Assembly (NCBI RefSeq): GCF_000940845.1
Contig: NZ_CP010341.1
Coordinates: forward strand, 1,230,001-1,262,000
Source of the DNA: Propionibacterium freudenreichii subsp. freudenreichii
Lineage (GTDB): Bacteria > Actinomycetota > Actinomycetes > Propionibacteriales > Propionibacteriaceae
Length of the DNA stretch: 32,000 bases
Direction of reading: 5' to 3'
Both the position numbers and the translations under genes were made by a program. Within the stretch, counting starts at the first letter, position 1, and each line of letters opens with the position of its first letter. Below are positions 4,355 to 30,186 of the stretch, piece by piece. Below the pieces are notes generated by a model. It worked only from the letters and a program-made list of their open reading frames with translations, did no database searches and was not told the origin of the DNA.

Positions 4355-5858
4355 GTGTCATTGACGAAGCGACAGCGCTGGACGCTGCTGGCGACGGTCT
4401 CCATCGGCCTGTTGCTCATCACCCTGGACAACTCGATCCTCTACACCGCCCTACCGCTCCTGACCGAGGAGCTGGGGGGCCAATGGGTCGCAGACACTGT
4501 GGATCATCAACGCATATCCCGTCGTGATCGTCGGGCTGCTGCTGGGCGCTGGCACGCTGGGGGACCGCGTGGGGCATCGCAGGATGTTCCTCATCGGCCT
4601 GGTGATCTTCGGCGTCGCCTCGGCCGCCGCGGCCTTCTCCCCGAGCCCCGCATGGCTCATCGCCTCGCGGGCGGTGATCGCGGTGGGCGCAGCCGCGATG
4701 ATGCCGGCGACCCTGGCCCTCATCCGGCTGAGCTTCGATGTCGAACGGGAACGAAACTTTGCAATTGCCGTGTGGGGCACGGTCTCGGTGGTCGGCTCGG
4801 CGATCGGGCCGATCGTCGGAGGCCTGCTGTTGGAGCACTTCTGGTGGGGTTCGGTCTTCCTCATCGGCATCCCGTTCGTGGTCATTGCCCTGATCGCCAC
4901 CGTGGTGGTCGCGCCGCCGAATGACCCCGATCCGAGCAAGCACTGGGATGCGATCTCCTCGCTCCAGGCCATGGTGGGACTGGTGGGTGCCGTGTTCCTG
5001 CTCAAGGAGCTGGCCAATGTGCCGCCCAACTGGACCGTGGTTGTCCTGGGCGCCGTGGCCGCAGGGCTCGGCCTGACCAGCTTCGTGCGACGACAACAGC
5101 GGTCGAACGATCCTCTCCTGGACTTCGCGATCTTCCGCAATCGTGCGTTCTCCGCCGGCGTGCTCGCCGCGGCCATCTCGATGTTCGCCGTGAGCGGCGC
5201 CCAGCTCATGACAACCCAACGCTTCCAGCTGGTCGAGGGCTTCACCCCACTGGAGGCGGGCCTGCTGGTCACCGTGGTGGCCATCGGATCGCTGCCCACC
5301 AGCCTGCTGGGGGGCCTGTACCTGGATCGGGTGGGACTGCTGCCGCTCATCGCCGGAGGGCTGGCGGTCAGTGCGATCGGCACTGCGGTGATGATCTTCG
5401 GCATCGAGGACCACTTGTTCTGGTTGATGGTGGCCGGACTCCTGATCTCCGGCATCGGCCTCGGCGCGGTGATGTCGGTGGCCTCCACCGCCATCGTCGG
5501 CAATGTCAGCGCCAGGCGCGCGGGCATGGCCTCCTCGGTGGAGGAGGTCTCCTACGAGTTCGGCTCCCTGATTGCGGTGGCCGTCCTGGGTAGCATGCTG
5601 AACTTCATCTACAGCGCGACCGTCCGGCTTCCCCCGGGCACCCCGGCCGTGGCACGCTCCAGTCTGACCGAGGCGATCGGCGTCGCGCAGGGTGATCAGG
5701 CGATCGTCGGTGCCGCCAATGCGGCGTTCGACAACGGATTCCTGGTGACGATGATCGTGCTCACCGTGGTGTTGGCACTGGGCGCGGCAGCAACCGCCCG
5801 GCTCCTGCGCCACTACGGCCCGGGCTCGCGCTCCCAGGAATTCTCCGACAACCACTGA
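4355..5858 (+). pseudogene. DHA2 (EmrB/QacA-type, 14-TMS) MFS efflux transporter, reading frame broken by one extra G in a G6 run (4474-4479)
   Basis: The N-terminal TM1 motif LLITLDNSILYTALPLLTEELG is in frame 2 (SD GGAAGG at 4341-4346, GTG at 4355; alternative ATG at 4337). The rest, (A)NGSQTLWIINAYPVVIVGLLLGAGTLGDRVGHRRMF.., is in frame 0. Removing one G from the run gives ELGANGSQTLWIINAY, collinear with the paralogue at 10485 (ELGATTDELQWTVDAY). Confidence 0.75.
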
Positions 5859-5883
5859 CCAGACGACCAGCGAGGGAGCGACG

Positions 5884-6462
5884 ATGCGTCCGAGTAAGCG
5901 CGATGCGATCCTTGGGGCCGCCCTGGGCGTGGTGGAGCGGGGAGGTGTCAGTGCCGTCACCTTCGAGTCCGTGGCCACCGCAGCCGGAGTGACCAAGGCC
6001 GGCGTCGTGTATCACTTCCCCACCAGGGAGGCCCTGTTGCTGGCGCTCCAGGAGTACCTGGCCCACCAGTGGCAGCTGGACCTCGAGGCACAGTTGGGCA
6101 CGCCCGTCGAATCTGCCTCGCAGGGTGACAAGCTTGCTGCCTATGCCCGCGACTCGAGCCACAGCTCCTCGCGCGCCGAATTGCTGCTCATGCTGGAGAC
6201 CGTCGACGACCCGCAGGCGTACGCCCCCTGGCACGCCGTGATGTCGCGGTGGACCCCCGCCCTGGACACGGATCAGCCGATGGGCGACGCCGAACTCGAC
6301 CATGCCGTGGCACGCCTGGCGGCTGACGGACTGTGGCTGTATGAGTCACTGTCGACCCACGCGTTGTCCCCGGGCGTGCGCCAGCAGATCGTCTCACGGC
6401 TCTCAGCACTGGCACATCGCCCGGACGGGCCCGCCGCACCGGGCGGTCCCGGCCGGCATTGA
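5884..6462 (+). CDS. TetR/AcrR-family transcriptional regulator
   Basis: N-terminal TetR HTH: RDAILGAALGVVERGGVSAVTFESVATAAGVTKAGVVYHFPTREALLLAL. SD GAGGGAG is upstream, and the gene sits 25 nt downstream of the MFS gene. Confidence 0.9.
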   Translation: MRPSKRDAILGAALGVVERGGVSAVTFESVATAAGVTKAGVVYHFPTREALLLALQEYLAHQWQLDLEAQLGTPVESASQGDKLAAYARDSSHSSSRAELLLMLETVDDPQAYAPWHAVMSRWTPALDTDQPMGDAELDHAVARLAADGLWLYESLSTHALSPGVRQQIVSRLSALAHRPDGPAAPGGPGRH

Positions 6463-6507
6463 TGCGCCGGGCACACCTGGACGCCCACACGTGCCGGGGC
6501 CTCGCGG

Positions 6508-7458
6508 TCAGGCCACGAGGACGACCCGTTGCGTCCCGTGGGTCCCGGTGAGCCATGCCTGCCCCACCTGCGACAGGGGCATGGTGAGGACGTCGCTGGT
6601 GAAGTGCCCGGCGGCGACCTCATCGAGCAGTTCGCCGAGCTCGGCAACGATGCGCGTTGCGGGAACCGAGCCCTGCCCACTGCCCGCAATGTCCAGGCGG
6701 GTCGCCCGCAGCGCGGCCGAGGGAATCGGGGACTCGGTTCCCGCGACGGAACCGATCTGCACCCAGGTGAGCTTCTGGTCGTCGTCATGGCGTGCCGGCA
6801 CGATCGCCCGTAGGGCGTCGGCGGTGGGCCGGCCCCACAAGTAGTCCAGCACCACGTCAACATCGCTGGCCGCCCGGCCGAGCTGTTCAGCCACCCGATC
6901 GGGCGCATCATCCAGCGCGACGATCGCATCGGGGTCCGCTGCGGCCATGCGCTGCGCGCCACGACCCACGGCGATCACCCGGCCCGCCCCCAGGCGCCGT
7001 GCCACGCGCACGGCCATCGCGCCGGCATTGCCGGTGGCCCCCAGGACCAGCACCGACTGGCCGGCTCGCAGGCCGACGCGCTGGCGCAGGGCGATCCATG
7101 ACGACATGGCCGGATTCATCACCGCCGCCACCTGGGCCGGGTCGGCACCGGGCGGAAGCAGGACGCTGTGGCGCACATCGATCACGGCCCGCTGCGCCAT
7201 GGAACCGTGCACGGTGTCACGCAGCACGAAGTAACGCAGACGGCCCTCGGCATCGCGTCCGACGCCGTCGATGCCCGGGATCAGGGGCAGCTCATCAGTG
7301 CTCGTGTAGTGCGATCCGGCCGCCTGCGAACGCACCCGGGGATGGAGCCCCACCGCCACGACGTCGACAACCGCCTCATGCCGACCGGTGGCAACCGGAT
7401 CGGGGACCTCGGTCCATCGGGGTGGTGACCCGAATTCCTCGACGACTGCAGCCCTCAT
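6508..7458 (-). CDS. MDR-superfamily NAD(P)H quinone oxidoreductase / zinc-type alcohol dehydrogenase-like protein
   Basis: MRAAVVEEFG..PxWTEVPDP N-terminus (GroES-like domain) and a nucleotide-binding stretch VLVLGATGNAGAMAVRVARRLGA. Confidence 0.8.
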   Translation of the reverse strand: MRAAVVEEFGSPPRWTEVPDPVATGRHEAVVDVVAVGLHPRVRSQAAGSHYTSTDELPLIPGIDGVGRDAEGRLRYFVLRDTVHGSMAQRAVIDVRHSVLLPPGADPAQVAAVMNPAMSSWIALRQRVGLRAGQSVLVLGATGNAGAMAVRVARRLGAGRVIAVGRGAQRMAAADPDAIVALDDAPDRVAEQLGRAASDVDVVLDYLWGRPTADALRAIVPARHDDDQKLTWVQIGSVAGTESPIPSAALRATRLDIAGSGQGSVPATRIVAELGELLDEVAAGHFTSDVLTMPLSQVGQAWLTGTHGTQRVVLVA

Positions 7459-7566
7459 GGCGCCTGCCTCTCACGTGCGATGGACCGGAACCGCACGTCG
7501 GGGGCGTCACGGTGAATTGACCGGGACGATCCTGACCGGGCGGTTGCGGAGTGCCGGGTGTCGTCG

Positions 7567-8442
7567 TCAGGCCTTCTGGCGACCTCCCGGCTTTCCCGGT
7601 GGTGTGCATACTGCGCCAATACTTGCGCAGATCACCGCCACGATGCCGAATACGTCGTGGATGGTCATGGTTTGTCCGAGGATGAAGAAGCCGGCTGCCG
7701 CGGCCACGGCCGGCGCCAGGGCCAACAGGATCGCGAACGTCGCCGCCGGGGTACGCCGCAGGGCGGTCATCTCCAGCGCATAGGGCGCAACCGATGACAG
7801 CAGCGCAATCCCCAGCCCCGCAATGAGCACATGGGGCCCGAACAGGCGACTACCGGTGGTTGCCAGCGCGATGGGCACCGTGACCACCGAACCCGCCACC
7901 ATCGCGACGGCCAGGCCCTGGATGCCCGCGAAGTGCCTGCCCGTGGCCTTCGACAGCAGGATGTACCCCGCCCAGAAGGCGGCGGCCACCAGGGTGAACG
8001 CCACGCCCAACGGATCAAGGTGGGTGGCCGAACCCCCGAGCAGCACCACCCCGACGAGTGCCAACCCGGCCCACACCAGGTTCATCCATCGACGTCCGGC
8101 CACCACCGACAGTGTCAGGGGGCCCAACAACTCGATGGTCACCGTCGTGCCCAGGGGGAGTCGGTCCAACGCAAGGTAGAAGAACAGGTTCATTCCGGTG
8201 AGCACCAGGCCGAAGGCGATGGCGGTGTACCAGGCGATGGGGCGACGTCCCCGCAGCGAGGGGCGCGCCACGGCGCAGAGGATGATGGCCGAGAAGACCA
8301 GGCGCAACGCGACGATCCCGGCAGGACCCACCGCGGGGAACAACATCACCGCGATCGACGCACCGGTCTCCTGGCAGAACAACCCGGTGACCACCAGCGA
8401 GGGTCCGAACAGCGTGGAACGTGCTGGCAATGCGGGGGACAT
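7567..8442 (-). CDS. EamA/DMT-family (RhtA-like) membrane exporter
   Basis: About 10 predicted TM helices and a duplicated EamA-like organisation. The N-terminal ..GASIAVMLFPAVGPAGIVALRLVFSAIIL resembles RhtA/EamA proteins. Confidence 0.8.
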   Translation of the reverse strand: MSPALPARSTLFGPSLVVTGLFCQETGASIAVMLFPAVGPAGIVALRLVFSAIILCAVARPSLRGRRPIAWYTAIAFGLVLTGMNLFFYLALDRLPLGTTVTIELLGPLTLSVVAGRRWMNLVWAGLALVGVVLLGGSATHLDPLGVAFTLVAAAFWAGYILLSKATGRHFAGIQGLAVAMVAGSVVTVPIALATTGSRLFGPHVLIAGLGIALLSSVAPYALEMTALRRTPAATFAILLALAPAVAAAAGFFILGQTMTIHDVFGIVAVICASIGAVCTPPGKPGGRQKA

Positions 8443-8575
8443 GTGCCCAGCCTTTCAGAGGTGGCCCTGCGCTCCTGGCCGTGATCACGGTGCGGTGGTA
8501 GCCGCGTGTTGTGCCCGGTAGCGCCCCTACCGGGCGTGGGGCGCCCTCCATGACGGAGCGCGTCGCCCGTTTGGG

Positions 8576-8605
8576 TTGCCGACCCGGAAACCCTTTTCGT
8601 AGACT
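8576..8605 (+). promoter_or_regulatory. candidate promoter giving a leaderless mRNA (-35 TTGCCG 8576-8581, 18-nt spacer, -10 TAGACT 8600-8605, 7 nt to ATG 8613)
   Basis: The TANNNT hexamer lies exactly 7 nt upstream of the ATG and there is no Shine-Dalgarno. This is the classical actinobacterial leaderless layout. Confidence 0.4.
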
Positions 8606-8620
8606 TTCCATCATGGAAAG
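8604..8620. promoter_or_regulatory. perfect 17-bp palindrome CTTTCCAT-C-ATGGAAAG overlapping the -10 element and the start codon (candidate operator)
   Basis: Read directly from the sequence. The arms are exact reverse complements, and the ATG at 8613-8615 lies inside the right arm. Confidence 0.45.
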
Positions 8621-9134
8621 CGAATCTGGCGGGGCCGGGAACTTCCACGGGGCCAAGGGTCCACACGCCGAGGGCAGCGCAGGCGACGGTCACCGTGACG
8701 AGGCCGCCGCGACACTGGACGCACTGTCCGCCGACCGCCATCGCCTTGCGGACCGGTTGGCGGTGCCGTGGGCATTGATGGCTGCCTTCGGCGCGTTGGC
8801 GGCCTGGTGGGTCGGCTCGGCGGTCACGACCACGCCGGGGTCGGGTTACGAGCCGCCGCTGGCGGGATGGATGACCCTGCCGGTGGCACTGGTCATCGCC
8901 CATCTGGTGCGACGTGGGACCGGAATCAGGTTCCGCGCCCTGGGGGCCCGGGCCAACGGAGCGATGCTCGCGGTGCTCGTGGCCTGCCTGCTCCTGTTCA
9001 GCGTGTCATTGGGAGCCGTCTCCCTGGGGATGGCCTGGCTGGTCGGGGTGATGAGCCTGGTCGCCTTCGGGGTCACCACGTGGCTGTCCGGCGTCGCCTA
9101 TCGAAGCGCCGTGGAACGCGTACGCCGTGGTTGA
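8613..9134 (+). CDS. small integral membrane protein of unknown function (about 4 TM helices)
   Basis: A hydrophilic N-terminus is followed by hydrophobic helices (WALMAAFGALAAWWVGSAV, WMTLPVALVIAHLV, AMLAVLVACLLLFSVSLGAV, AWLVGVMSLVAFGVTTWL). The stop overlaps the next gene's start (GTGGTTGA). In-frame alternative starts exist at 8550 and 8511. Confidence 0.6.
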   Translation: MESESGGAGNFHGAKGPHAEGSAGDGHRDEAAATLDALSADRHRLADRLAVPWALMAAFGALAAWWVGSAVTTTPGSGYEPPLAGWMTLPVALVIAHLVRRGTGIRFRALGARANGAMLAVLVACLLLFSVSLGAVSLGMAWLVGVMSLVAFGVTTWLSGVAYRSAVERVRRG

Positions 9135-9432
9135 GGCACGCTTTGATGCGGTGATCCATGCGCCGTTGCGGCTTCGCATCTGTGGGCTGCTGCGCCCTGT
9201 CGATGGGCTTGATTTCGCGCTGCTGCGCGATTCCCTGGAGGTGTCGGATGCGACGCTGTCCAAGCATGTCAAGACCCTCACCGCAGCGGGCTATGTGACC
9301 TCCCGCAAGGCCGCCTCCACCGAGCGCAGCGACGGGCGCCGGATCATGTGGCTCTCGCTGACCGGGCCGGGGAGGCTCGCCTTCGACGGTCATGTGCGCG
9401 CGCTGCGCGAGATCGTCGGCACCGGAAGCTGA
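9127..9432 (+). CDS. winged-helix transcriptional regulator (ArsR/MarR-like, HTH_34-type)
   Basis: FDAVIHAPLRLRICGLL..DFALLRDSLEVSDATLSKHVKTLTAAGYVTSRK...RRIMWLSLTGPGRLAFDGHVRAL matches the pattern of this small wHTH family as I recall it. It is translationally coupled to the upstream membrane protein. Confidence 0.8.
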   Translation: MVEARFDAVIHAPLRLRICGLLRPVDGLDFALLRDSLEVSDATLSKHVKTLTAAGYVTSRKAASTERSDGRRIMWLSLTGPGRLAFDGHVRALREIVGTGS

Positions 9433-9595
9433 CGCGCTGGCTCCTGCGCCGCAACGTGGGATGGGCCACCTTTGGGCCACCAGGCCATCAGGGACGGAAA
9501 AGCGGCCCCGAGGGGATGCCACCATGTGGGTAAGAAGTGGGTATTTCATACCAAAGCGGGACCCACCTGATCGGTGAATCCCGCTCTGACTACGG

Positions 9596-9669
<74 letters not shown>

Positions 9670-9828
9670 CCGGGCCTGAAAGACCCGTTGCAGGACTTTA
9701 CCCGACAGCCACCGATCGTGCGAATCGGACACGGCGCCCCGGGGTCGACTTCGCGGCCGCATTAGGCTTGTTGGCGGTGCGGCAACCCGTGGCCGCACCC
9801 CGATGGAACGACCCCCTGAGGAGATTCG

Positions 9829-10293
9829 ATGACCCAGCACATGAACGTCGAGAGCTTCAACCTCGATCACACGAAGGTCAAGGCGCCGTTCATCCGGGTC
9901 GCCGATGTCAAGCACCTTCCCCAGGGCGACACCCTGACGAAATATGACGTGCGCTTCTGCCAGCCGAATGTGAACCACCTGGACATGAAGGCGGTCCATT
10001 CGGTGGAGCACTCCTTCGCGGAATGCGTGCGCAACCACAGCGACTCGGTCATCGACTTCGGCCCGATGGGTTGCCAGACGGGCTTCTACCTGATCATGGT
10101 GGGCGAGCCGGATGTGCCCCGAATCGCCGACCTCGTGGAGCAGACCTTCCGCGACATCCTGGCCCTCGATGCCGTACCCGCCGCCAACGTGGTGCAGTGC
10201 GGCTGGGGAGCCAACCACAGCCTCCAGGGGGCCAAGGACGCCGTCAGCACGATGCTGAGGCATCGGGCCGAATGGGAACAGGTCATGGCCTGA
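9829..10293 (+). CDS. luxS: S-ribosylhomocysteine lyase
   Basis: Contains [17 protein letters not shown], the metal-binding HSVEH motif and the catalytic-Cys motif [18 protein letters not shown] is upstream. Confidence 0.95.
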
Positions 10294-10484: not shown

Positions 10485-12065
10485 GTGCCGTTGAACCCGA
10501 CACAGCACACCGGCATCAATCCGGATCGCCGTCGCTGGATCGCCCTGATCGTCCTGTCGTTGGCGCTGTTCATGGCGTCCATGGACAACACGATCCTCAA
10601 TGTCGCCCTGCCCACGCTGGGACGCGAACTCGGCGCCACGACCGACGAGCTGCAATGGACTGTCGATGCCTACCAGGTGACCTATGCCGGCTTCCTGTTG
10701 GTCGCCGGTGGCCTGGTCGACCGCTGGGGGCGGACGCGCACCTTCGTCGCGGGCGTGGCGGTCTTCGGGCTGTGTTCCCTGGCTGCGGGATTGTCCACCA
10801 ATACGACGATGCTGATCCTCGCCCGTGGCCTGACCGGCATCGGCGCGGCGCTCCTGACCCCCTCGACGCTCGCCCTGATCTCGGTACTGTTCCGCCGGCC
10901 CGGGGAACGCACCACGGCCTTCGCCATCTGGTCAGGCGCAAACAGTGCCGGTGCCGCCGTCGGACCCCTGCTGTCCGGCGGCCTGTTGGCCCATTTCAGC
11001 TGGGGGTCCATCTTCCTGATCAACGTTCCCGTGGCGGCACTGTGCCTGGTGGGAGCGGTGTTCCTGCTGCCGCGGGTCAGGGCCGAACGCGACGAGGACC
11101 ACATCGACTGGCCCGGTACGGGGCTGTCGATCGCGGGGCTGTGCGCCGTGTGCTGGGCGGTCATCTCGGCACCGGGACTCGGACTCTTCTCGGCGCCCAT
11201 CATCTTCGCCTTCCTCGGCGGCATCGCACTGCTGGTCGGGTTCGTCTGGTGGCAGCACCACGCGAGCGCTCCACTGCTGCGTCTCAGCCTGTTCCGCAGC
11301 CGCCCCTTCGCCGTCTCGGTGGCAGTGTCCGGCCTGGTCACCGCCGGTGGTGCCGGAGCGCTGTTCGTGCTCACCCAGTTCCTGCAATTCGTCCTGCAGT
11401 TCACGCCATGGCAATCGGGACTGAGCATCATGCCGGTCGCCGCCATGATGCTCGTCGGTGCGATCCTGGCCCCGATCAGCCTCAAGCGCATCGGCATCAA
11501 GCGCGCCGTCATCGCAGGCCTGATCTGCGTAGCGCTCGGCTTCACCCTGCTGTCCCTGACCCACGTCGGCATGACCTACCTGCAGATGCTGCCCGGCGCG
11601 ATGTTCTTCGGGCTGGGCGCCGGTCTCCTGATGCCCGCAGCCACCCAGGCCGTCATGGATTCCCTGCCCTCGGAGTCGGAGGGTGCCGGGTCGGCCACCA
11701 ACAGCGCGCTCATGCAGGTGGGCAGTGCGATGGGCGTGGCCATCACCGGATCACTGCTGGCGTGGCGCTACCGCGAGGTGATGAGTGCCGACGCCGCGGT
11801 CAGGGGCCTGGGCGAGCCATTGCACTCCGACATCCTGGCCTCGGTGGGACGCGCCTTCGACCTCTCCTCGGGCGGCGCGCACCCCGACATCCTGGCTGCC
11901 CTGAAGCGGGGATTCGTCTCGGGAATGCAGGTCGGCCTGGGGGCCAGCGCAGCCGTCGTCGTGCTCGCGACGATCGCGGTCGCGATCTTCTTCCCGCGCC
12001 ATCCGGTCGCGCCCGATGAGGCCGAGATCGAGGGCTCCGAACCGAAGGCGTCGCCCGCCCCCTGA
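10485..12065 (+). CDS. DHA2 (EmrB/QacA-type) MFS efflux transporter
   Basis: TM1 motif FMASMDNTILNVALPTLGRELG, then LQWTVDAYQVTYAGFLLVAGGLVDRWGRTRTF (motif A region), with about 14 hydrophobic segments. The start (GTG 10485 or TTG 10491) is uncertain. Confidence 0.9.
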   Translation: MPLNPTQHTGINPDRRRWIALIVLSLALFMASMDNTILNVALPTLGRELGATTDELQWTVDAYQVTYAGFLLVAGGLVDRWGRTRTFVAGVAVFGLCSLAAGLSTNTTMLILARGLTGIGAALLTPSTLALISVLFRRPGERTTAFAIWSGANSAGAAVGPLLSGGLLAHFSWGSIFLINVPVAALCLVGAVFLLPRVRAERDEDHIDWPGTGLSIAGLCAVCWAVISAPGLGLFSAPIIFAFLGGIALLVGFVWWQHHASAPLLRLSLFRSRPFAVSVAVSGLVTAGGAGALFVLTQFLQFVLQFTPWQSGLSIMPVAAMMLVGAILAPISLKRIGIKRAVIAGLICVALGFTLLSLTHVGMTYLQMLPGAMFFGLGAGLLMPAATQAVMDSLPSESEGAGSATNSALMQVGSAMGVAITGSLLAWRYREVMSADAAVRGLGEPLHSDILASVGRAFDLSSGGAHPDILAALKRGFVSGMQVGLGASAAVVVLATIAVAIFFPRHPVAPDEAEIEGSEPKASPAP

Positions 12066-12105
12066 ACCCGGCGACACGGCTGGGCCGCCGACGAGCGGCG
12101 GTGTA

Positions 12106-12111
12106 TATAGT
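12106..12111 (+). promoter_or_regulatory. candidate -10 element TATAGT for the riboswitch-led transcript
   Basis: The TANNNT hexamer sits in a local AT-rich patch (GTGTATATAGTT) about 12 nt before the first riboswitch helix. No convincing -35 was seen. Confidence 0.35.
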
Positions 12112-12123
12112 TGGGGTCAACGT

Positions 12124-12256
12124 TTCAACGTGCCCGGGGTCGGTGTAAGTCCGAACCGGCGGTGACAGTCCGCGAACCGCGGCCCCTCGTGGGGTCCGGC
12201 CGAACCGGTGGGATTCCGGTACCGACGGTGAAAGTCCGGAGGGGAGAGCGCGTGAA
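12124..12256 (+). promoter_or_regulatory. FMN riboswitch (RFN element) aptamer
   Basis: Near-complete match to the RFN consensus as I recall it: CCGGGGTCGGTGTAAGTCCGAACCGGCGGTGACAGTCCGCGAACC ... GAACCGGTGGGATTCCGGTACCGACGGTGAAAGTCCGGAGGGGAGA. It is closed by a P1 helix, TTCAACGTGC (12124-12133) paired with GCGCGTGAA (12248-12256). Confidence 0.9.
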
Positions 12257-12371
12257 CAGTGCGGCGGACGATGCCGCGGCCGGCCCGTGCGGGTCGGCCG
12301 TGTGAGTCGTGTGCAGTCGGACTGTCGAGCACCCCGGTCCACGTTGACCGAGGAAGGAATGTCGACAGCCG

Positions 12372-13262
12372 ATGGCCTCATCACGGTTCACCCGCCATCC
12401 AGCACCCACCGGGGTGCGGATCGGTGCCCCCCTGGTGGTGGGGGCGCTCCTGCTCCTGGCCTGGCATGCGGTCGTGTCGACCCACACCGTCCCACTCACC
12501 TTGTTGCCCACGCCCGGCTCCGTGTGGAGCCGACTGGTGCACGACATCGTCCACGGTGAATTGTTGGCCCGCACGGCCACCACGATCTGGGAAGCGGTCC
12601 TGGGCTGCATCGTGGCCACCGTGTTCGCCCTTCCCGTCGGCTACCTGGTGGCGCGCGTTCGGCTTGCCGAGGCCGCCATATCCCCCTACCTGGCCGCCTC
12701 GCAGGCGATCCCGGCCGTGGCGTTGGCGCCCCTGCTGGTGATCTGGGTGGGTTACGGGCTCACCCCGATTGTCCTGCTGTGCTCCCTGATCGTCTTCTTC
12801 CCCCTGCTGCTGTCCACCGTGCTGGGCCTTCGTTCGATTGACCACGAGGTCGTCGAGGCGGCCGAGCTCGACGGGGCCTCGGGATGGCGCATGATCCGCT
12901 ACATCGAGGCGCCGCTGTCGCGGGCCGCACTTCTCAGCGGGGTGCGCAATGGGTTCACCCTGTCGGTGACCGGCGCGGTGGTCGGCGAGTTCGTCATGGG
13001 TGGCACCGGGCTGGGCCTGGTGGTCTCCATGCAATCGGCCTCGGCCGATACCACCGGCCTGTTCTCCACCCTCATCGTGCTGTGCGTCCTGGCAATGGTC
13101 ATCTACCTCGGCCTGATTGCGGTCGAGCGATTCACCGATCCCTATCGCGTGCCCCGGGCAGCGCATCCCGTGCCACTCGAGACGGCACCGGACCTGCGCT
13201 TGGTGGCCGCCACGCAAGCCCATCAATCCCACACGTCGGCCCAGAAGGAGCTCGTCGCATGA
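12372..13262 (+). CDS. ABC transporter permease (NitT/TauT-ThiX family); RibX-like because of the FMN riboswitch
   Basis: Six hydrophobic helices and an EAA loop EAAELDGASGWRMIRYIEAPLSRAALLSG. SD GAGGAAGG at 12350-12357. It is the first gene after the riboswitch. Confidence 0.85.
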   Translation: MASSRFTRHPAPTGVRIGAPLVVGALLLLAWHAVVSTHTVPLTLLPTPGSVWSRLVHDIVHGELLARTATTIWEAVLGCIVATVFALPVGYLVARVRLAEAAISPYLAASQAIPAVALAPLLVIWVGYGLTPIVLLCSLIVFFPLLLSTVLGLRSIDHEVVEAAELDGASGWRMIRYIEAPLSRAALLSGVRNGFTLSVTGAVVGEFVMGGTGLGLVVSMQSASADTTGLFSTLIVLCVLAMVIYLGLIAVERFTDPYRVPRAAHPVPLETAPDLRLVAATQAHQSHTSAQKELVA

Positions 13263-14266
13263 CCCGTCACAGCAGACTCACCAGATTCCTCCTCGTGCTC
13301 CTTGCCCTCACCCTGGGAACTGCCATGAGCGCCTGCGGGAACCAGTCGGGTTCCTCGTCGGCCTCGTCCAGCGCCGGCATCCCCCTCACCGTCGGGCTCA
13401 CCTACACCCCCGACATCCAGTTCTCACCGTTCTACGTCGCAGTCCAGAAGGGCTACTTCGCCGACGAGGGCCTCAACGTGACATTGCGCCACCATGGCGC
13501 CTCCGAATCCCTGATGGGTGCCCTGCAGTCGGGCACCGAGGACGTCGTCTACGCGGGCGGTGACGAGATGCTCCTGTCGCGCTCCCAGGGCGTCGACGTG
13601 GTCAACTTCGCCACCATGTACCAGAGCCATCCGGCCGAATTGATCGTGCCGCAGGGCTCGTCCATCTCCTCATTCGCCGACCTGCGTGGACACAGCATCG
13701 GAATCCCCGGGCCATTCGGGGAGAACTGGTACGCATTGCTGGCCATGTTGCGGCAGGCAGGGCTGACCCAGGGCGATGTGAACATCCAGTCAATCGGCTA
13801 CACCCAGCAAGCCGCACTCATGGGCAACAAGGTGGATGCCGTGGTCGGATTCTCGAACAACGATGCCGTGAAGTTCGGCCAGGCCGGATTCCCCATCCGC
13901 GAGATCAGGCTCGATGCGGCCACACCGTTGGTTGCCCTGGGCCTTGGGGCCTCGAAGGCGACCGTCACCGACAAGCAGGACCAGCTGAAGGCCATGATGC
14001 GGGCGCTCGACAAGGCCGTCGCCTACTGCACTTCCGATCTTGACGGCACGGTGGCCCTGACCGAGAAGTACGTGCCGGCCCTGTCGGACGATGCCCAACG
14101 GGCAGCGGCCAGGGCAACGCTGGAGGCGACCAACAAGCTCTACGGCTCCCAGCTCGGCAAGCAGGACGCCCAGCGCTGGAGCGACATGGCCACCTTCATG
14201 GCCGAGTCAGGCATCATCTCCAAGCCGGTGGACGCCAAGGAATCCTTCGTGTCGCTGGTCGGCTGA
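13259..14266 (+). CDS. ABC transporter substrate-binding lipoprotein, NMT1/THI5 (ThiY-like) family; RibY-like candidate riboflavin-binding protein
   Basis: The start overlaps the permease stop (ATGA), with SD GAAGGAG upstream. It carries a lipoprotein signal, LLVLLALTLGTAMSAC with a Cys lipobox. The body, LTVGLTYTPDIQFSPFYVAVQKGYFADEGLNV.., is typical of NMT1/SsuA-like binders. Confidence 0.85.
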   Translation: MTRHSRLTRFLLVLLALTLGTAMSACGNQSGSSSASSSAGIPLTVGLTYTPDIQFSPFYVAVQKGYFADEGLNVTLRHHGASESLMGALQSGTEDVVYAGGDEMLLSRSQGVDVVNFATMYQSHPAELIVPQGSSISSFADLRGHSIGIPGPFGENWYALLAMLRQAGLTQGDVNIQSIGYTQQAALMGNKVDAVVGFSNNDAVKFGQAGFPIREIRLDAATPLVALGLGASKATVTDKQDQLKAMMRALDKAVAYCTSDLDGTVALTEKYVPALSDDAQRAAARATLEATNKLYGSQLGKQDAQRWSDMATFMAESGIISKPVDAKESFVSLVG

Positions 14267-14271
14267 CACCC

Positions 14272-14333
14272 ACGGCGACGGGGAACCCGGCCCGGTGTCC
14301 ACCACGCGTGGGTACCGGGCCGTGCCGTCGCGG
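14272..14333 (+). terminator. long imperfect hairpin after the ABC operon (probable terminator)
   Basis: Paired blocks GCGACGG/CCGTCGC and CGGCCCGGT/ACCGGGCCG surround the central self-complementary CCACGCGTGG (14302-14311). It starts 6 nt after the stop. The U-tail is poor (GGTTACTAACCTTGTGGTGTT). Confidence 0.5.
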
Positions 14334-14504
14334 GGTTACTAACCTTGTGGTGTTCGTGAATGACCAGGGAAATGAGAAGAACGTGACACGCATCTGCTCC
14401 ACGACCGGGGCGGCCGCCACCATGGTGCCGGCAGGCGGTCCGGCGCGATGGGGCATCCGGGCGATGGCGACGACGCGGCATCCGCGTCGCGGGGGATACC
14501 GGGC

Positions 14505-15701
14505 ATGACGTCGAGCAGGCACCAGTACCTCCCACCCACCCCCGAGGACATCGTCGAGACGAAGTTCATGGACCTCTTCGACACCCCGGGCGAACCCATG
14601 CACCTGGTCCGCGGCGGAACCCTGCCGGGGATCACGGTGGCCTATGAGACCTACGGCACCCTCAACGAGCGTCGTGACAACGCCATCTACATCTGCCATG
14701 CACTCACCGGGGACGCCCACGCCGCCGGCTACCACGAGGGCGACGATCGTCCGGGCTGGTGGGATGCCCTCATCGGACCCGGCAAGGCCATCGACACCGA
14801 CCGCTGGTTCGTCGTCGCCTCGAACATCCTAGGCGGCTGCTCCGGCACCACCGGTCCCAGCAGCGTCAACCCCGAGACGGGCAAGCCCTACGGGCTCGAC
14901 TTCCCCCTGCTCGACATGCACGACTTCGTCGTCGTGCACCGCGCCCTGCTCACCAAGTTGGGGGTGCCGCATCTGCACGCGGCAGTGGGCGGGTCGCTGG
15001 GGGGCATGCAGGTCCTGGACTGGGCCCTGACCCATCCTGAGGACATGAACCAGGCCGTCGTCATTGCCAGCTCCAGCCGACTGACCGCACAGAACATCGC
15101 GTTCAGCGCCGTCGGCCGTGAGGCCATCATGAGCGACGAGAACTTCATGAACGGCGCCTTCGCCGAGAATGACACGAATCCCGATGTCGGCCTTGCAGTG
15201 GCCCGGATGATGGCCCACATCACCTACACCAGCGAGGAGGGGTTCGAGGAGAAGTTCGGCAGGCGTCCCCAGTTTGACGCCCAACAGCCGGGCTTCGGTG
15301 TCGACTTCGCCGTCGAGAGCTACCTGGACCATCAGGCAAGCAGCTTCATCGGGCGCTTCGATGCCCTGAGCTATCTCTACCTGACCCGCGTCATGGACTA
15401 TTTCAATCCCTTCGCCGACGCCCATGCCCTCGACCGTCTCGTGGCGACTCCGGTGCGCTTCCTGGTGATGAGCTTCGACTCCGACTGGCGCTTCGGCACG
15501 GCCCACTCCCGGCGCATCGTGCGGCGCCTGCAGGACGCGGCCCTGCCGGTGAGCTTCCGCGAGATCCATGCGCCGTGGGGCCACGATTCCTTCCTGCTGC
15601 ACATCCCGCCCTACCTTGACTCCGTGCGGGCCTTCGTCGAACAGCCCGCGGTGCCCCGACCCACGATTCGACGTCGACGACTACGGAAGTGGGGACGATG
15701 A
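14505..15701 (+). CDS. metX: homoserine O-acetyltransferase
   Basis: Contains ITVAYETYGTLNERRDNAIYICHALTGDAH, NILGGCSGTTGPSS and the nucleophile elbow GGSLGGMQ. ATG at 14505 was chosen over the upstream GTG at 14448. Confidence 0.9.
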   Translation: MTSSRHQYLPPTPEDIVETKFMDLFDTPGEPMHLVRGGTLPGITVAYETYGTLNERRDNAIYICHALTGDAHAAGYHEGDDRPGWWDALIGPGKAIDTDRWFVVASNILGGCSGTTGPSSVNPETGKPYGLDFPLLDMHDFVVVHRALLTKLGVPHLHAAVGGSLGGMQVLDWALTHPEDMNQAVVIASSSRLTAQNIAFSAVGREAIMSDENFMNGAFAENDTNPDVGLAVARMMAHITYTSEEGFEEKFGRRPQFDAQQPGFGVDFAVESYLDHQASSFIGRFDALSYLYLTRVMDYFNPFADAHALDRLVATPVRFLVMSFDSDWRFGTAHSRRIVRRLQDAALPVSFREIHAPWGHDSFLLHIPPYLDSVRAFVEQPAVPRPTIRRRRLRKWGR

Positions 15702-28701: not shown

Positions 28702-29489
28702 GCCAACCCATCCTCACCGTTGAGCACCTGACCAGGAACTTCGGGGGACTGGCGGCGCTGTCCGATATGTCCATGACGCTGAACCGCGGCGAGCTGGTGG
28801 GGCTCATCGGCCCGAACGGTGCCGGCAAGACGACCGTGTTCAACATGCTCACCGGTGTCTATGCCCCTTCCAGCGGCTCCATCACCTTCGACGAGCACGG
28901 CACTGCGGTGGAGCTCGGCGGGCGCAAGCCCAATGCGATCTGTCGGGCCGGTGTGGCACGCACCTTCCAGAACATCCGACTGTTCAAGGAACTGACGGTG
29001 CTGGAGAATGTGGTCAGCGCCATGCAGTTGCAGGAGAGCTACGGCCTGCTCGCCACCTTCGGGCACACGCCGGTCTGGAAGCGCAGCGAGGCCGACATCC
29101 GGCAGCGCAGCCGCGAGATGCTCGGCATCCTGGGACTGGCGGACAAGGAATCAGAGCTGGCCCGCAACCTTCCCTACGGCGACCAGCGACACCTGGAGAT
29201 CGCGCGGGCCCTTGCCACCGCCCCCTCGCTGTTGCTGCTGGACGAGCCCGCGGCCGGCATGAATCCCGCCGAGACCGCCGAGCTCACCACGCTGATCAGC
29301 TGGATCCGTGAGAACTTTGACCTGACGATCCTGCTCATCGAACACGACATGAGCCTGGTGATGACCATCTGCGAGCGTATCTACGTGCTCGACCACGGCA
29401 TCGTGATCGCCTCGGGAACCCCCGATGAGGTGCAGCACGATCCACAGGTGATCGAGGCATACCTGGGCCAGGAGGCCAGCGATGTTTGA
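28698..29489 (+). CDS. livG: branched-chain amino acid ABC transporter ATPase LivG-type
   Basis: Walker A GPNGAGKTT, LPYGDQRHLEIARAL and Walker B LLLLDEPAAGMN. ATGA overlap with livM. Confidence 0.95.
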   Translation: MSQPILTVEHLTRNFGGLAALSDMSMTLNRGELVGLIGPNGAGKTTVFNMLTGVYAPSSGSITFDEHGTAVELGGRKPNAICRAGVARTFQNIRLFKELTVLENVVSAMQLQESYGLLATFGHTPVWKRSEADIRQRSREMLGILGLADKESELARNLPYGDQRHLEIARALATAPSLLLLDEPAAGMNPAETAELTTLISWIRENFDLTILLIEHDMSLVMTICERIYVLDHGIVIASGTPDEVQHDPQVIEAYLGQEASDV

Positions 29490-30186
29490 GATCCATGACC
29501 TCCAGGTCAACTTCGGCGGAATCCAGGCGCTCAAGGGCATCTCGCTGAGTGTCGAGGACGGCCAGATCGTCACCCTGATCGGTGCCAATGGGGCGGGCAA
29601 GACCACGACCCTGCGCACTGCATCGGGCCTGGAGCGCCCCAGTGGCGGCACGATCACCCTGGCCGGCCAGGACATCACCAGGGCTTCCGCACGCGAACGC
29701 GTCAAGCAGGGACTCGTCCAGGTTCCCGAGGGGCGTCGCGTCTTCCCCAAGATGTCGGTGCTGGAGAACCTCGAACTGGGCGCCTTCCTGCGCAAGGATC
29801 GGGCGGGGATCACCCGGGACCTGCGCGATGTCTACGAACGGTTCCCCGTGCTGGCTGATCGGCTCAAGCAACAGGCCGGCACCCTGTCGGGCGGCGAGCA
29901 ACAGATGCTGGCCATGGGACGCGCCCTGATGAGCCGCCCGAAGATGCTGCTCCTCGATGAACCGTCAATGGGCCTGGCCCCCTTGTTCGTGCAGGAAATC
30001 TTCGACATCATCAAGGCGATCAACGAAGCCGGCACCACCGTCCTGCTGGTGGAGCAGAATGCAAATATGGCCCTTCAGATCGCCGATCACGCATATGTGA
30101 TGGAGACTGGCAGAATCGTCCTGTCCGGCACCGCAGCCGAGCTGTCTGCCAGCGACGAGATCAAGCGCGCCTACCTGGGAGGCTGA
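29482..30186 (+). CDS. livF: branched-chain amino acid ABC transporter ATPase LivF-type
   Basis: Walker A GANGAGKTT, signature LSGGEQQMLAMGRAL and Walker B LLLLDEPSMGLAP. It overlaps the livG stop. Confidence 0.95.
   Translation: MFEIHDLQVNFGGIQALKGISLSVEDGQIVTLIGANGAGKTTTLRTASGLERPSGGTITLAGQDITRASARERVKQGLVQVPEGRRVFPKMSVLENLELGAFLRKDRAGITRDLRDVYERFPVLADRLKQQAGTLSGGEQQMLAMGRALMSRPKMLLLDEPSMGLAPLFVQEIFDIIKAINEAGTTVLLVEQNANMALQIADHAYVMETGRIVLSGTAAELSASDEIKRAYLGG

Follow-up and report, generated by a model that had tools for sequence, protein, structure and literature searches.

The ribXY operon of Propionibacterium freudenreichii: a probable FMN-repressed riboflavin importer with its ATPase encoded elsewhere

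The locus described here is very probably (we put this at about 0.88) a ribXY operon, encoding a binding-protein-dependent riboflavin importer that is repressed by FMN through a riboswitch in its 5′ leader and that depends on an ATPase encoded elsewhere. In such an importer RibY, a lipid-anchored protein with the NMT1 fold, would capture extracellular riboflavin and hand it over to a dimer of the RibX permease, and the ATPase from another locus would drive transport. The locus is already known, as ribXY of P. freudenreichii was published with its riboswitch in 2015: the supplement of Gutierrez-Preciado et al. lists PFREUD_11030 as “ribX,ribY” with “YES” for a riboswitch, and a second riboswitch of this species on ribD-C-AB-H (PMC4418817). 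The genome analysed here shows that same layout, with one riboswitch for ribXY and another for a rib operon; the tags PFREUD_11020, 11030 and 11040 are not mentioned in the paper texts. A sequence-only reading of this DNA had taken the locus for an actinobacterial version of an importer predicted mainly in Chloroflexi. Such a version it is, but the reading underestimated prior knowledge, since the 2015 work already included actinobacterial RibXY and this very species. The operon itself calls for no new explanation; what the present analysis adds is a prediction of how the leader switches, the single NitT/TauT-type ATPase of the genome, and a set of RibY-positive genomes without a close match to that ATPase.

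All features of the operon lie on the plus strand of the window, the 32,000-nt stretch of DNA that was analysed. A cmscan of the window placed an FMN riboswitch aptamer (RFN element, RF00050) at 12126-12255 with 88.3 bits (E 4e-19; gathering score 66.2), which bears out the RFN element previously recognised from the letters at 12124-12256. The match covers model positions 1-138 of 138 without truncation and corresponds to a complete six-helix aptamer closed by P1 (12128-12135 with 12246-12253; 8 pairs, one mismatch). The aptamer stands in the 5′ leader of ribX, on the same strand, with 116 nt between its end and the start of the gene. A consensus promoter scan returned no full sigma-70-type promoter, and only the −10-like hexamer TATAGT (12106-12111), read from the sequence, is visible as a candidate promoter element.

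The two genes are as the sequence-only reading had described them. ribX (12372-13262) encodes an ABC permease of 296 aa with a BPD_transp_1 domain (99.4 bits), which among the NCBIfam models comes nearest to the SaoP, TauC and SsuC permeases without reaching any of their cut-offs. ribY (13259-14266) encodes an NMT1-family substrate-binding lipoprotein of 335 aa (PF09084, 134.9 bits) with a signal peptide and a lipobox at Cys26. The HMM searches therefore agree with the NitT/TauT-type permease and NMT1-family lipoprotein proposed before, and the ATGA at 13259-13262, where the genes had been said to be coupled, is indeed a 4-nt overlap. The terminator-like hairpin noted after ribY was also recovered, at 14275-14331 (about −49 kcal/mol, z = −2.3); it has no U tract and fails the U-tailed terminator pattern. 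The operon is flanked by an MFS efflux gene upstream (10485-12065) and metX downstream (14448-15701), and no ABC ATPase is encoded between the two, in keeping with the earlier claim that the operon lacks one; the nearest ABC_tran matches in the window (28758-29967) belong to an unrelated system.

The ribX leader is most likely a translational OFF switch, as folding predicts two alternative states of similar energy and opposite accessibility of the Shine-Dalgarno sequence. When P1 is forced to form, a sequestor hairpin is predicted at 12316-12373, in which the Shine-Dalgarno (12350-12358) is enclosed and the A and U of the AUG at 12372 are base-paired; in this fold the pairing probability exceeds 0.85 for G12350, G12352, G12353 and positions 12362-12373. 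The two states differ in the partner of a switching segment (12332-12347) delimited by constrained folds and unpaired probabilities. With P1 formed, its CCCC (12332-12335) is predicted to pair with the GAGG of the Shine-Dalgarno; in the alternative state, the whole segment is predicted to pair with 12125-12139, that is, the 5′ strand of P1 and CCGGGG, in a duplex of −25.7 kcal/mol. Thus, when FMN is abundant, the aptamer would close P1 and release the switching segment for the sequestor hairpin, which would pair the GAGG, bury the start codon and leave ribX untranslated. When FMN is absent, the 5′ strand of P1 and the adjacent CCGGGG would hold the switching segment and leave the ribosome-binding site free. 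In both cases ribY would presumably follow ribX through translational coupling at the ATGA overlap.

At least 13 of the 29 family loci have the same switching layout as their best duplex. Cognate pairings are slightly stronger than non-cognate ones (−20.9 versus −19.6 kcal/mol), with a permutation p value that is inflated by relatedness, and when the long-range helix was tested for covariation, the 5′ strands of P1 proved too conserved for any real signal. Comparison therefore supports the switch weakly, because the pairing segments are conserved and not covarying. A GC-rich hairpin (12276-12301), found in constrained and unconstrained folds, has no U tract and is probably not the regulated element, since it is formed in both predicted states. 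A regulated intrinsic terminator is for these reasons not favoured, and no U-tailed terminator was found in the ribX leader. The absence of such a terminator is shared with translational FMN riboswitches, as is the three-element logic of aptamer 5′ part, switching segment and Shine-Dalgarno; Vitreschak et al. reportedly proposed Shine-Dalgarno sequestration for the FMN riboswitches of Actinobacteria in 2002. In contrast to those riboswitches, the alternative helix predicted here is unusually long-range, reaching about 200 nt over the whole aptamer and the constitutive GC hairpin.

The name RibXY was given by Sun et al. in 2013, and the system was tested by Gutierrez-Preciado et al. in 2015, who showed that ribXY of Chloroflexus aurantiacus complements an E. 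coli ribB auxotroph, the growth rescue being riboflavin-dependent (PMC4418817). Additionally, ribXY of Streptomyces has been described as a riboflavin importer (PMC11039241). Riboflavin as the substrate of the present system is taken from this literature, by analogy with the homologs. Compared with C. aurantiacus RibXY (Caur_0816-0817), the locus has the same FMN riboswitch, COG0600 permease, COG0715/NMT1 binding protein and lack of an ATPase gene. Nothing essential differs, although the present RibY is a lipoprotein and its host, a Gram-positive actinobacterium, also keeps the full biosynthetic operon. RibY is 47% identical (E 4e-103) to a riboswitch-linked RibY from Chloroflexia (Chloroflexota), which is not Caur_0817 itself; the C. 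aurantiacus protein was absent from the best 120 matches of a second homology search.

The assignment to RibXY is supported by this identity and by the conservation of the layout. RibY homologs were detected in 63 of 101 Propionibacteriaceae genomes, and the riboswitch lies upstream of ribX-ribY in 28 of the 29 family loci that were fetched, the 29th ending at a contig edge. The same arrangement was observed in 8 of 11 more distant loci, and it occurs in Gulosibacter, Enemella, Arcanobacterium, Trueperella, Georgenia, Actinotignum and two Chloroflexota; Actinobacteria had been listed before as carriers of ribXY with a riboswitch (PMC4418817). In 76 of 80 distant loci, ribX immediately precedes ribY in the same orientation.

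The FMN riboswitch is thus kept over more than 25 genera and two phyla, which speaks against a riboswitch association that is merely incidental to a ThiXY-like importer of pyrimidines (HMP/FAMP) or an Ssu/Tau-like importer of sulfonates. Such a reading draws on the nearest solved structure to RibY, which is ThiY (3ix1; E 2e-16, only 63 bits), and on its best NCBIfam match, which is SsuA_fam. However, RibY falls far under the cut-offs (95.6 versus 163.5 for SsuA_fam, 32.5 versus 304.25 for TauA), no TPP riboswitch (RF00059) is found in the window, and the true Ssu-like system of the genome lies elsewhere, its NMT1 binding protein being 25% identical to RibY. Consequently, we consider a pyrimidine or sulfonate importer highly improbable. 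SsuABC/TauABC, of the NitT/TauT family (TC 3.A.1.17), have the permease and binding-protein superfamilies in common with RibXY, and the genome's own such system supplies its only cognate-type ATPase; RibXY, in contrast, stays under every equivalog cut-off and is regulated by a flavin riboswitch. The likeness to ThiXYZ likewise consists of the NMT1 periplasmic-binding fold family of ThiY and the permease family, but ThiXYZ has its own ATPase, ThiZ (PMC3766115), whereas an FMN riboswitch and no ATPase are present here. Thiamine riboswitches have been reported upstream of some ribXY homologs (PMC4418817). With RibXY as the preferred identification, ribX/ribY (riboflavin ABC importer, FMN-riboswitch controlled) would be a suitable annotation in place of the generic names that close homologs carry, such as “ABC transporter substrate-binding protein” or “NitT/TauT family”.

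The missing ATPase of RibXY was already remarked on in 2013. An adjacent ATPase gene, ribZ, has been reported in a few Chloroflexi; nothing like it was seen in the approximately 110 loci examined here, where tblastn detected no ABC ATPase near ribXY, either within ±1.5 kb (30 family loci) or within ±6 kb (80 distant loci). A partner encoded elsewhere may nevertheless be reasonably inferred from the conserved core of the RibX coupling-helix motif (EAAELDG...IEAP, residues 162-181): among 107 homologs the A, A, D, G and P positions are invariant or nearly so, and the first residue, E, varies. The best candidate in this genome appears to be its one NitT/TauT-type ATPase (C1:2470764-2471555), a SaoA/TauB/SsuB-like protein matching TIGR01184 over its full length with 201 bits, which is encoded in a sulfatase-linked operon (C1:2467741-2471555) alongside a binding protein and two permeases that belong to this operon. 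The second-best TIGR01184 match (C1:2289423) was considered as a hidden TauB-like ATPase and rejected, as it is the CysA of a complete CysPTWA sulfate system.

A close match (E <= 1e-40) to the NitT/TauT-type ATPase was not found in 21 of the 63 RibY-positive family genomes, and the best matches within the same genus are only 42-44% identical. Ten of these 21 genomes, all of them 98-100% complete, have no full-length match to TIGR01184, and their best matches resemble the background of the present genome (CysA, ProV and UgpC types). Four near-complete genomes among the 21 (G006, G018, G020 and G012) encode no NMT1 binding protein other than RibY. Because RibY-positive relatives exist in which no TauB-type ATPase is detectable, the partner of RibXY would not always be a taurine/sulfonate-type ATPase. 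These genomes narrow the ATPase question standing since 2013 and make it testable.

The same absences, and a conserved coupling-helix core that makes some partner expected, would also fit a shared ATPase of a different ABC family, for instance the orphan UgpC/MsiK-like protein encoded at C1:1986397-1987491. A crude ORF scan showed no membrane-protein gene on the same strand within 4 kb of its gene. At 69-85% identity, the protein recurs in 93 of 101 genomes, and it has a match in all RibY-positive ones except four that are fragmented (G042, G058, G068 and G087). However, an ATPase that is nearly universal says nothing specific on RibXY by its presence, and a cognate-type ATPase does exist in this genome. 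Furthermore, we know of no NitT/TauT-type permease shown to use a MalK/UgpC-type ATPase. The GlnQ-like orphan ATPase (C1:1023773-1024492), tested likewise, was rejected as a partner, since several RibY-positive genomes, G012, G018 and G020 among them, gave no match at E <= 1e-70. Energising by a shared ATPase is, on balance, a tentative possibility. It is equally doubtful, though conceivable, that RibXY represents a type-I ABC importer that routinely uses a non-cognate shared ATPase (e.g., UgpC/MsiK-like) or no dedicated one, a view prompted by at least four near-complete Propionibacteriaceae genomes that have no NitT/TauT-type system besides RibXY and no detectable TauB/SsuB-type ATPase. If true, this would mean that the sharing of ATPases, known from sugar (CUT1) transporters, is not confined to them.

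A second FMN riboswitch in the genome (2.65 Mb, 67% G+C) precedes and controls a ribD-ribE-ribBA-ribH operon, so flavin uptake and synthesis would be repressed by one and the same signal. A riboswitch reports FMN status alone, and the transported species is not defined by it; the substrate might therefore be not riboflavin itself but something flavin-related, such as FMN, FAD, lumichrome, a lumazine precursor or, as an accidental substrate, roseoflavin. For C. aurantiacus RibY, a passage of PMC4418817 that cites its reference 48 reports the binding of flavins (plural). P. freudenreichii is sensitive to roseoflavin (PMC1570366), and therefore some uptake route for this compound exists; PnuX/RibM was not found in the genome, and its single ECF S-component, located beside tandem ATPases, has no riboswitch. 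Against a substrate other than riboflavin stand the riboflavin-dependent rescue of E. coli and the description of the Streptomyces importer cited above, and we regard it as unlikely.

RibXY is the leading candidate route for roseoflavin entry, because PnuX/RibM was not found and no other transporter in the genome is marked by an FMN riboswitch. Roseoflavin selection is known to yield riboflavin-overproducing strains, and resistant mutants could therefore carry their mutations not only in the rib leader but also in ribXY or the ribXY leader. P. freudenreichii, a food-grade dairy species, makes the lower ligand of B12 from a flavin, and its flavin supply thus also feeds B12 production.

The importer encoded by ribX and ribY is a known system, already published down to the species' own locus. 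RibXY was named in 2013 for a ThiXYZ-like transporter of Chloroflexi that is controlled by an FMN riboswitch and comes without an ATPase (PMC3766115), and in 2015 a riboflavin-auxotrophic E. coli was rescued by the ribXY operon of C. aurantiacus (PMC4418817). The latter study states that ribXY and the riboswitch occur in Actinobacteria, Chloroflexi and Thermobaculum, and that in a few Chloroflexi an ATPase gene, ribZ, adjoins ribXY. Its supplement lists, for Propionibacterium freudenreichii CIRM-BIA1, both "ribX,ribY PFREUD_11030 YES transporter" and "ribD,ribC,ribAB,ribH PFREUD_21470 YES biosynthetic" (PMC4418817). The sequence-only reading of the locus as an actinobacterial RibXY was correct.

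When the whole window was scanned against Rfam, two matches were obtained: a tRNA (9596-9669, minus strand) and an FMN riboswitch (RF00050; 12126-12255, plus strand), the latter covering the entire model, untruncated, and scoring 88.3 bits (gathering score 66.2). On the same strand, ribX (12372-13262) codes for a 296-aa membrane protein (BPD_transp_1, 99 bits) that comes closest to the NCBIfam models for the permeases SaoP, TauC and SsuC but stays far under the equivalog cut-off of each. It is followed by ribY (13259-14266), whose 335-aa product carries a signal peptide, a lipobox cysteine and an NMT1 domain (PF09084, 135 bits), with a score that does not reach the SsuA and TauA cut-offs. The ribX stop codon and the ribY start codon overlap in ATGA (13259-13262), and GAAGGAG is located 9 nt 5′ of the ribY start. 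The terminator-like structure that had been described after the genes is a strong hairpin at 14275-14331 (plus strand; about -49 kcal/mol, z = -2.3) that has no U tract. The unit is flanked upstream by the gene of a DHA2-type MFS efflux pump and downstream by metX. As no ATPase gene was found among the genes of the unit and the structural features are as described, the sequence-only account of the operon is accurate. About 15 kb downstream, two neighbouring ABC ATPase genes and a 7-TM permease gene (28758-29967) constitute a separate, complete ABC system outside ribXY. Additionally, the protein clusters of near-identical strain variants include a few records with shortened RibY (279 and 313 aa), and a single 2,426-bp contig encodes both the 279-aa RibY and a RibX present as 241-aa and 55-aa proteins; these may reflect an operon broken in some strains or assembly artefacts.

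An inventory of further RFN elements and rib biosynthesis genes, suggested by the sequence-only reading, located both. The genome is a single contig (C1) of 2,649,166 bp with 67.3% G+C, of which the window occupies 1,230,001-1,262,000, and it has only one FMN riboswitch besides that of ribXY. This second element (C1:2277771-2277905, minus strand; 93.9 bits) precedes ribD, the riboflavin synthase gene, ribBA and the lumazine synthase gene (5728-9906 of fetched locus L003). The arrangement with two riboswitches equals the one published for P. freudenreichii, and their relative positions on the contig, 47% and 86%, agree with locus tags 11030 and 21470. As riboswitches are found on both ribXY and the rib operon, the organism is predicted to make and import riboflavin, with both routes responding to FMN; synthesis and uptake would be governed by one common signal. 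A search of the genome for a PnuX/RibM-type transporter found none, and its lone ECF S-component has no riboswitch.

Of the 101 Propionibacteriaceae genomes sampled, 63 carry a RibY homolog, representing 25 of 40 genera, and RF00050 lies 5′ of ribX-ribY in 28 of 29 fetched family loci, the remaining one being interrupted by a contig end. A wider scan gave 80 loci with RibY homologs, from sources including Propionibacterium, Brooklawnia, Enemella, Streptomyces, Kitasatospora, Actinotignum, Arcanobacterium, Trueperella, Georgenia and two Chloroflexota, and in 76 of them ribX is immediately 5′ of ribY on the same strand. Unlike the collinear order elsewhere, the two genes are on opposite strands in Streptomyces chumphonensis (L089) and a Kitasatospora sp. 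(L107). Eleven distant loci were scanned for RNA families: the riboswitch is directly upstream in eight, including both Chloroflexota. In Kitasatospora (L085) and Saccharothrix (L075) it lies on the opposite strand at a distance of several kb, and none was found near the Streptomyces iranensis locus (L066). The closest named homologs belong to Propionibacterium species (60-67% identity); RibY shares 47% identity (E 4e-103) with the riboswitch-linked RibY of a Chloroflexia genome and, within its own genome, only 25% with the remaining NMT1 protein. Among solved structures, its best match is FAMP-binding ThiY (3ix1, 63 bits), with no nearer one found.

Regarding control by the leader, region 12100-12400 was folded with either P1, the closing helix of the aptamer, or an alternative helix enforced. 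With P1, a hairpin forms at 12316-12373 in which the Shine-Dalgarno GAGG (12350-12353) pairs with CCCC (12332-12335) and the outer stem extends to the first two bases of the AUG. When the alternative helix is imposed instead, 12125-12139 pairs with 12332-12347 (8 + 6 pairs, -25.7 kcal/mol), and the Shine-Dalgarno bases buried under P1 become mostly unpaired. Thus, P1 formation would hide the Shine-Dalgarno and part of the AUG, whereas the alternative helix would expose the former. The ensemble energies are similar (-144.2 and -147.3 kcal/mol), and a GC hairpin (12276-12301) is common to both states and, consequently, is unlikely to be the regulated element. Across the 29 family loci, the sequence that pairs best with the 5′ strand of P1 stops 0-5 nt short of a purine-rich ribosome-binding site in at least 13; the pairing segments show conservation instead of covariation, and cognate pairs have just a slight advantage over non-cognate ones. 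The behaviour predicted by folding fits translational sequestration, a mode that has been proposed for actinobacterial RFN elements. A direct repeat, TCAACGT (12117-12123 and 12125-12131), lies at the 5′ border of the aptamer; pairing of its upstream copy with CACGTTGA (12340-12347) could provide an additional register.

The remaining interest of the system lies in the identity of its energising subunit. Among 107 RibX homologs, the A, A, D, G and P of the coupling-helix motif are invariant or nearly so (its first residue, E, is variable), and, as this core is retained, a nucleotide-binding partner is expected. A tblastn search with an ABC ATPase query found none in 30 family or 80 distant ribXY loci, and the same query gave 46 ATPase regions in the present genome. 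Only two NMT1 binding proteins are encoded there, the second by the first gene of an operon without a riboswitch (C1:2467741-2473217; L004 4741-10217) that further comprises genes for two permeases, one ATPase and one sulfatase and that resembles a system for scavenging sulfonates or sulfate esters. Its ATPase (C1:2470764-2471555), SaoA/TauB/SsuB-like and the sole TauB-like one of the genome, is the only full-length match to the NitT/TauT-type model (TIGR01184, 201 bits) and, therefore, the natural partner candidate for RibXY in this genome. The second-best match was ruled out as a further ATPase of this type, being the CysA of a complete sulfate system.

The earlier proposal of a borrowed ATPase stands insofar as a partner is expected, but a TauB-like donor seems unlikely as the general answer. 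In 21 of the 63 RibY-positive genomes there is no match to this ATPase at E <= 1e-40; ten of these, each 98-100% complete, also lack a full-length match to TIGR01184, and in four of the ten RibY is the only NMT1 protein. Judged by this distribution of homologs, the family-wide data argue against this type of ATPase as the general partner. Two orphans were also considered. A GlnQ-like ATPase (L117; C1:1023773-1024492, minus strand) has no obvious cognate permease: in a crude ORF scan, nothing encoding a membrane protein on the same strand turned up within 4 kb. It was rejected because its distribution does not track RibY. A UgpC/MsiK-like ATPase (L121; C1:1986397-1987491, plus strand) is found at 69-85% identity in 93 of 101 family genomes, and in all RibY-positive ones save four that are fragmented. 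It is probably a shared ATPase of sugar importers and, being nearly universal, no more than a permissive candidate for RibXY.
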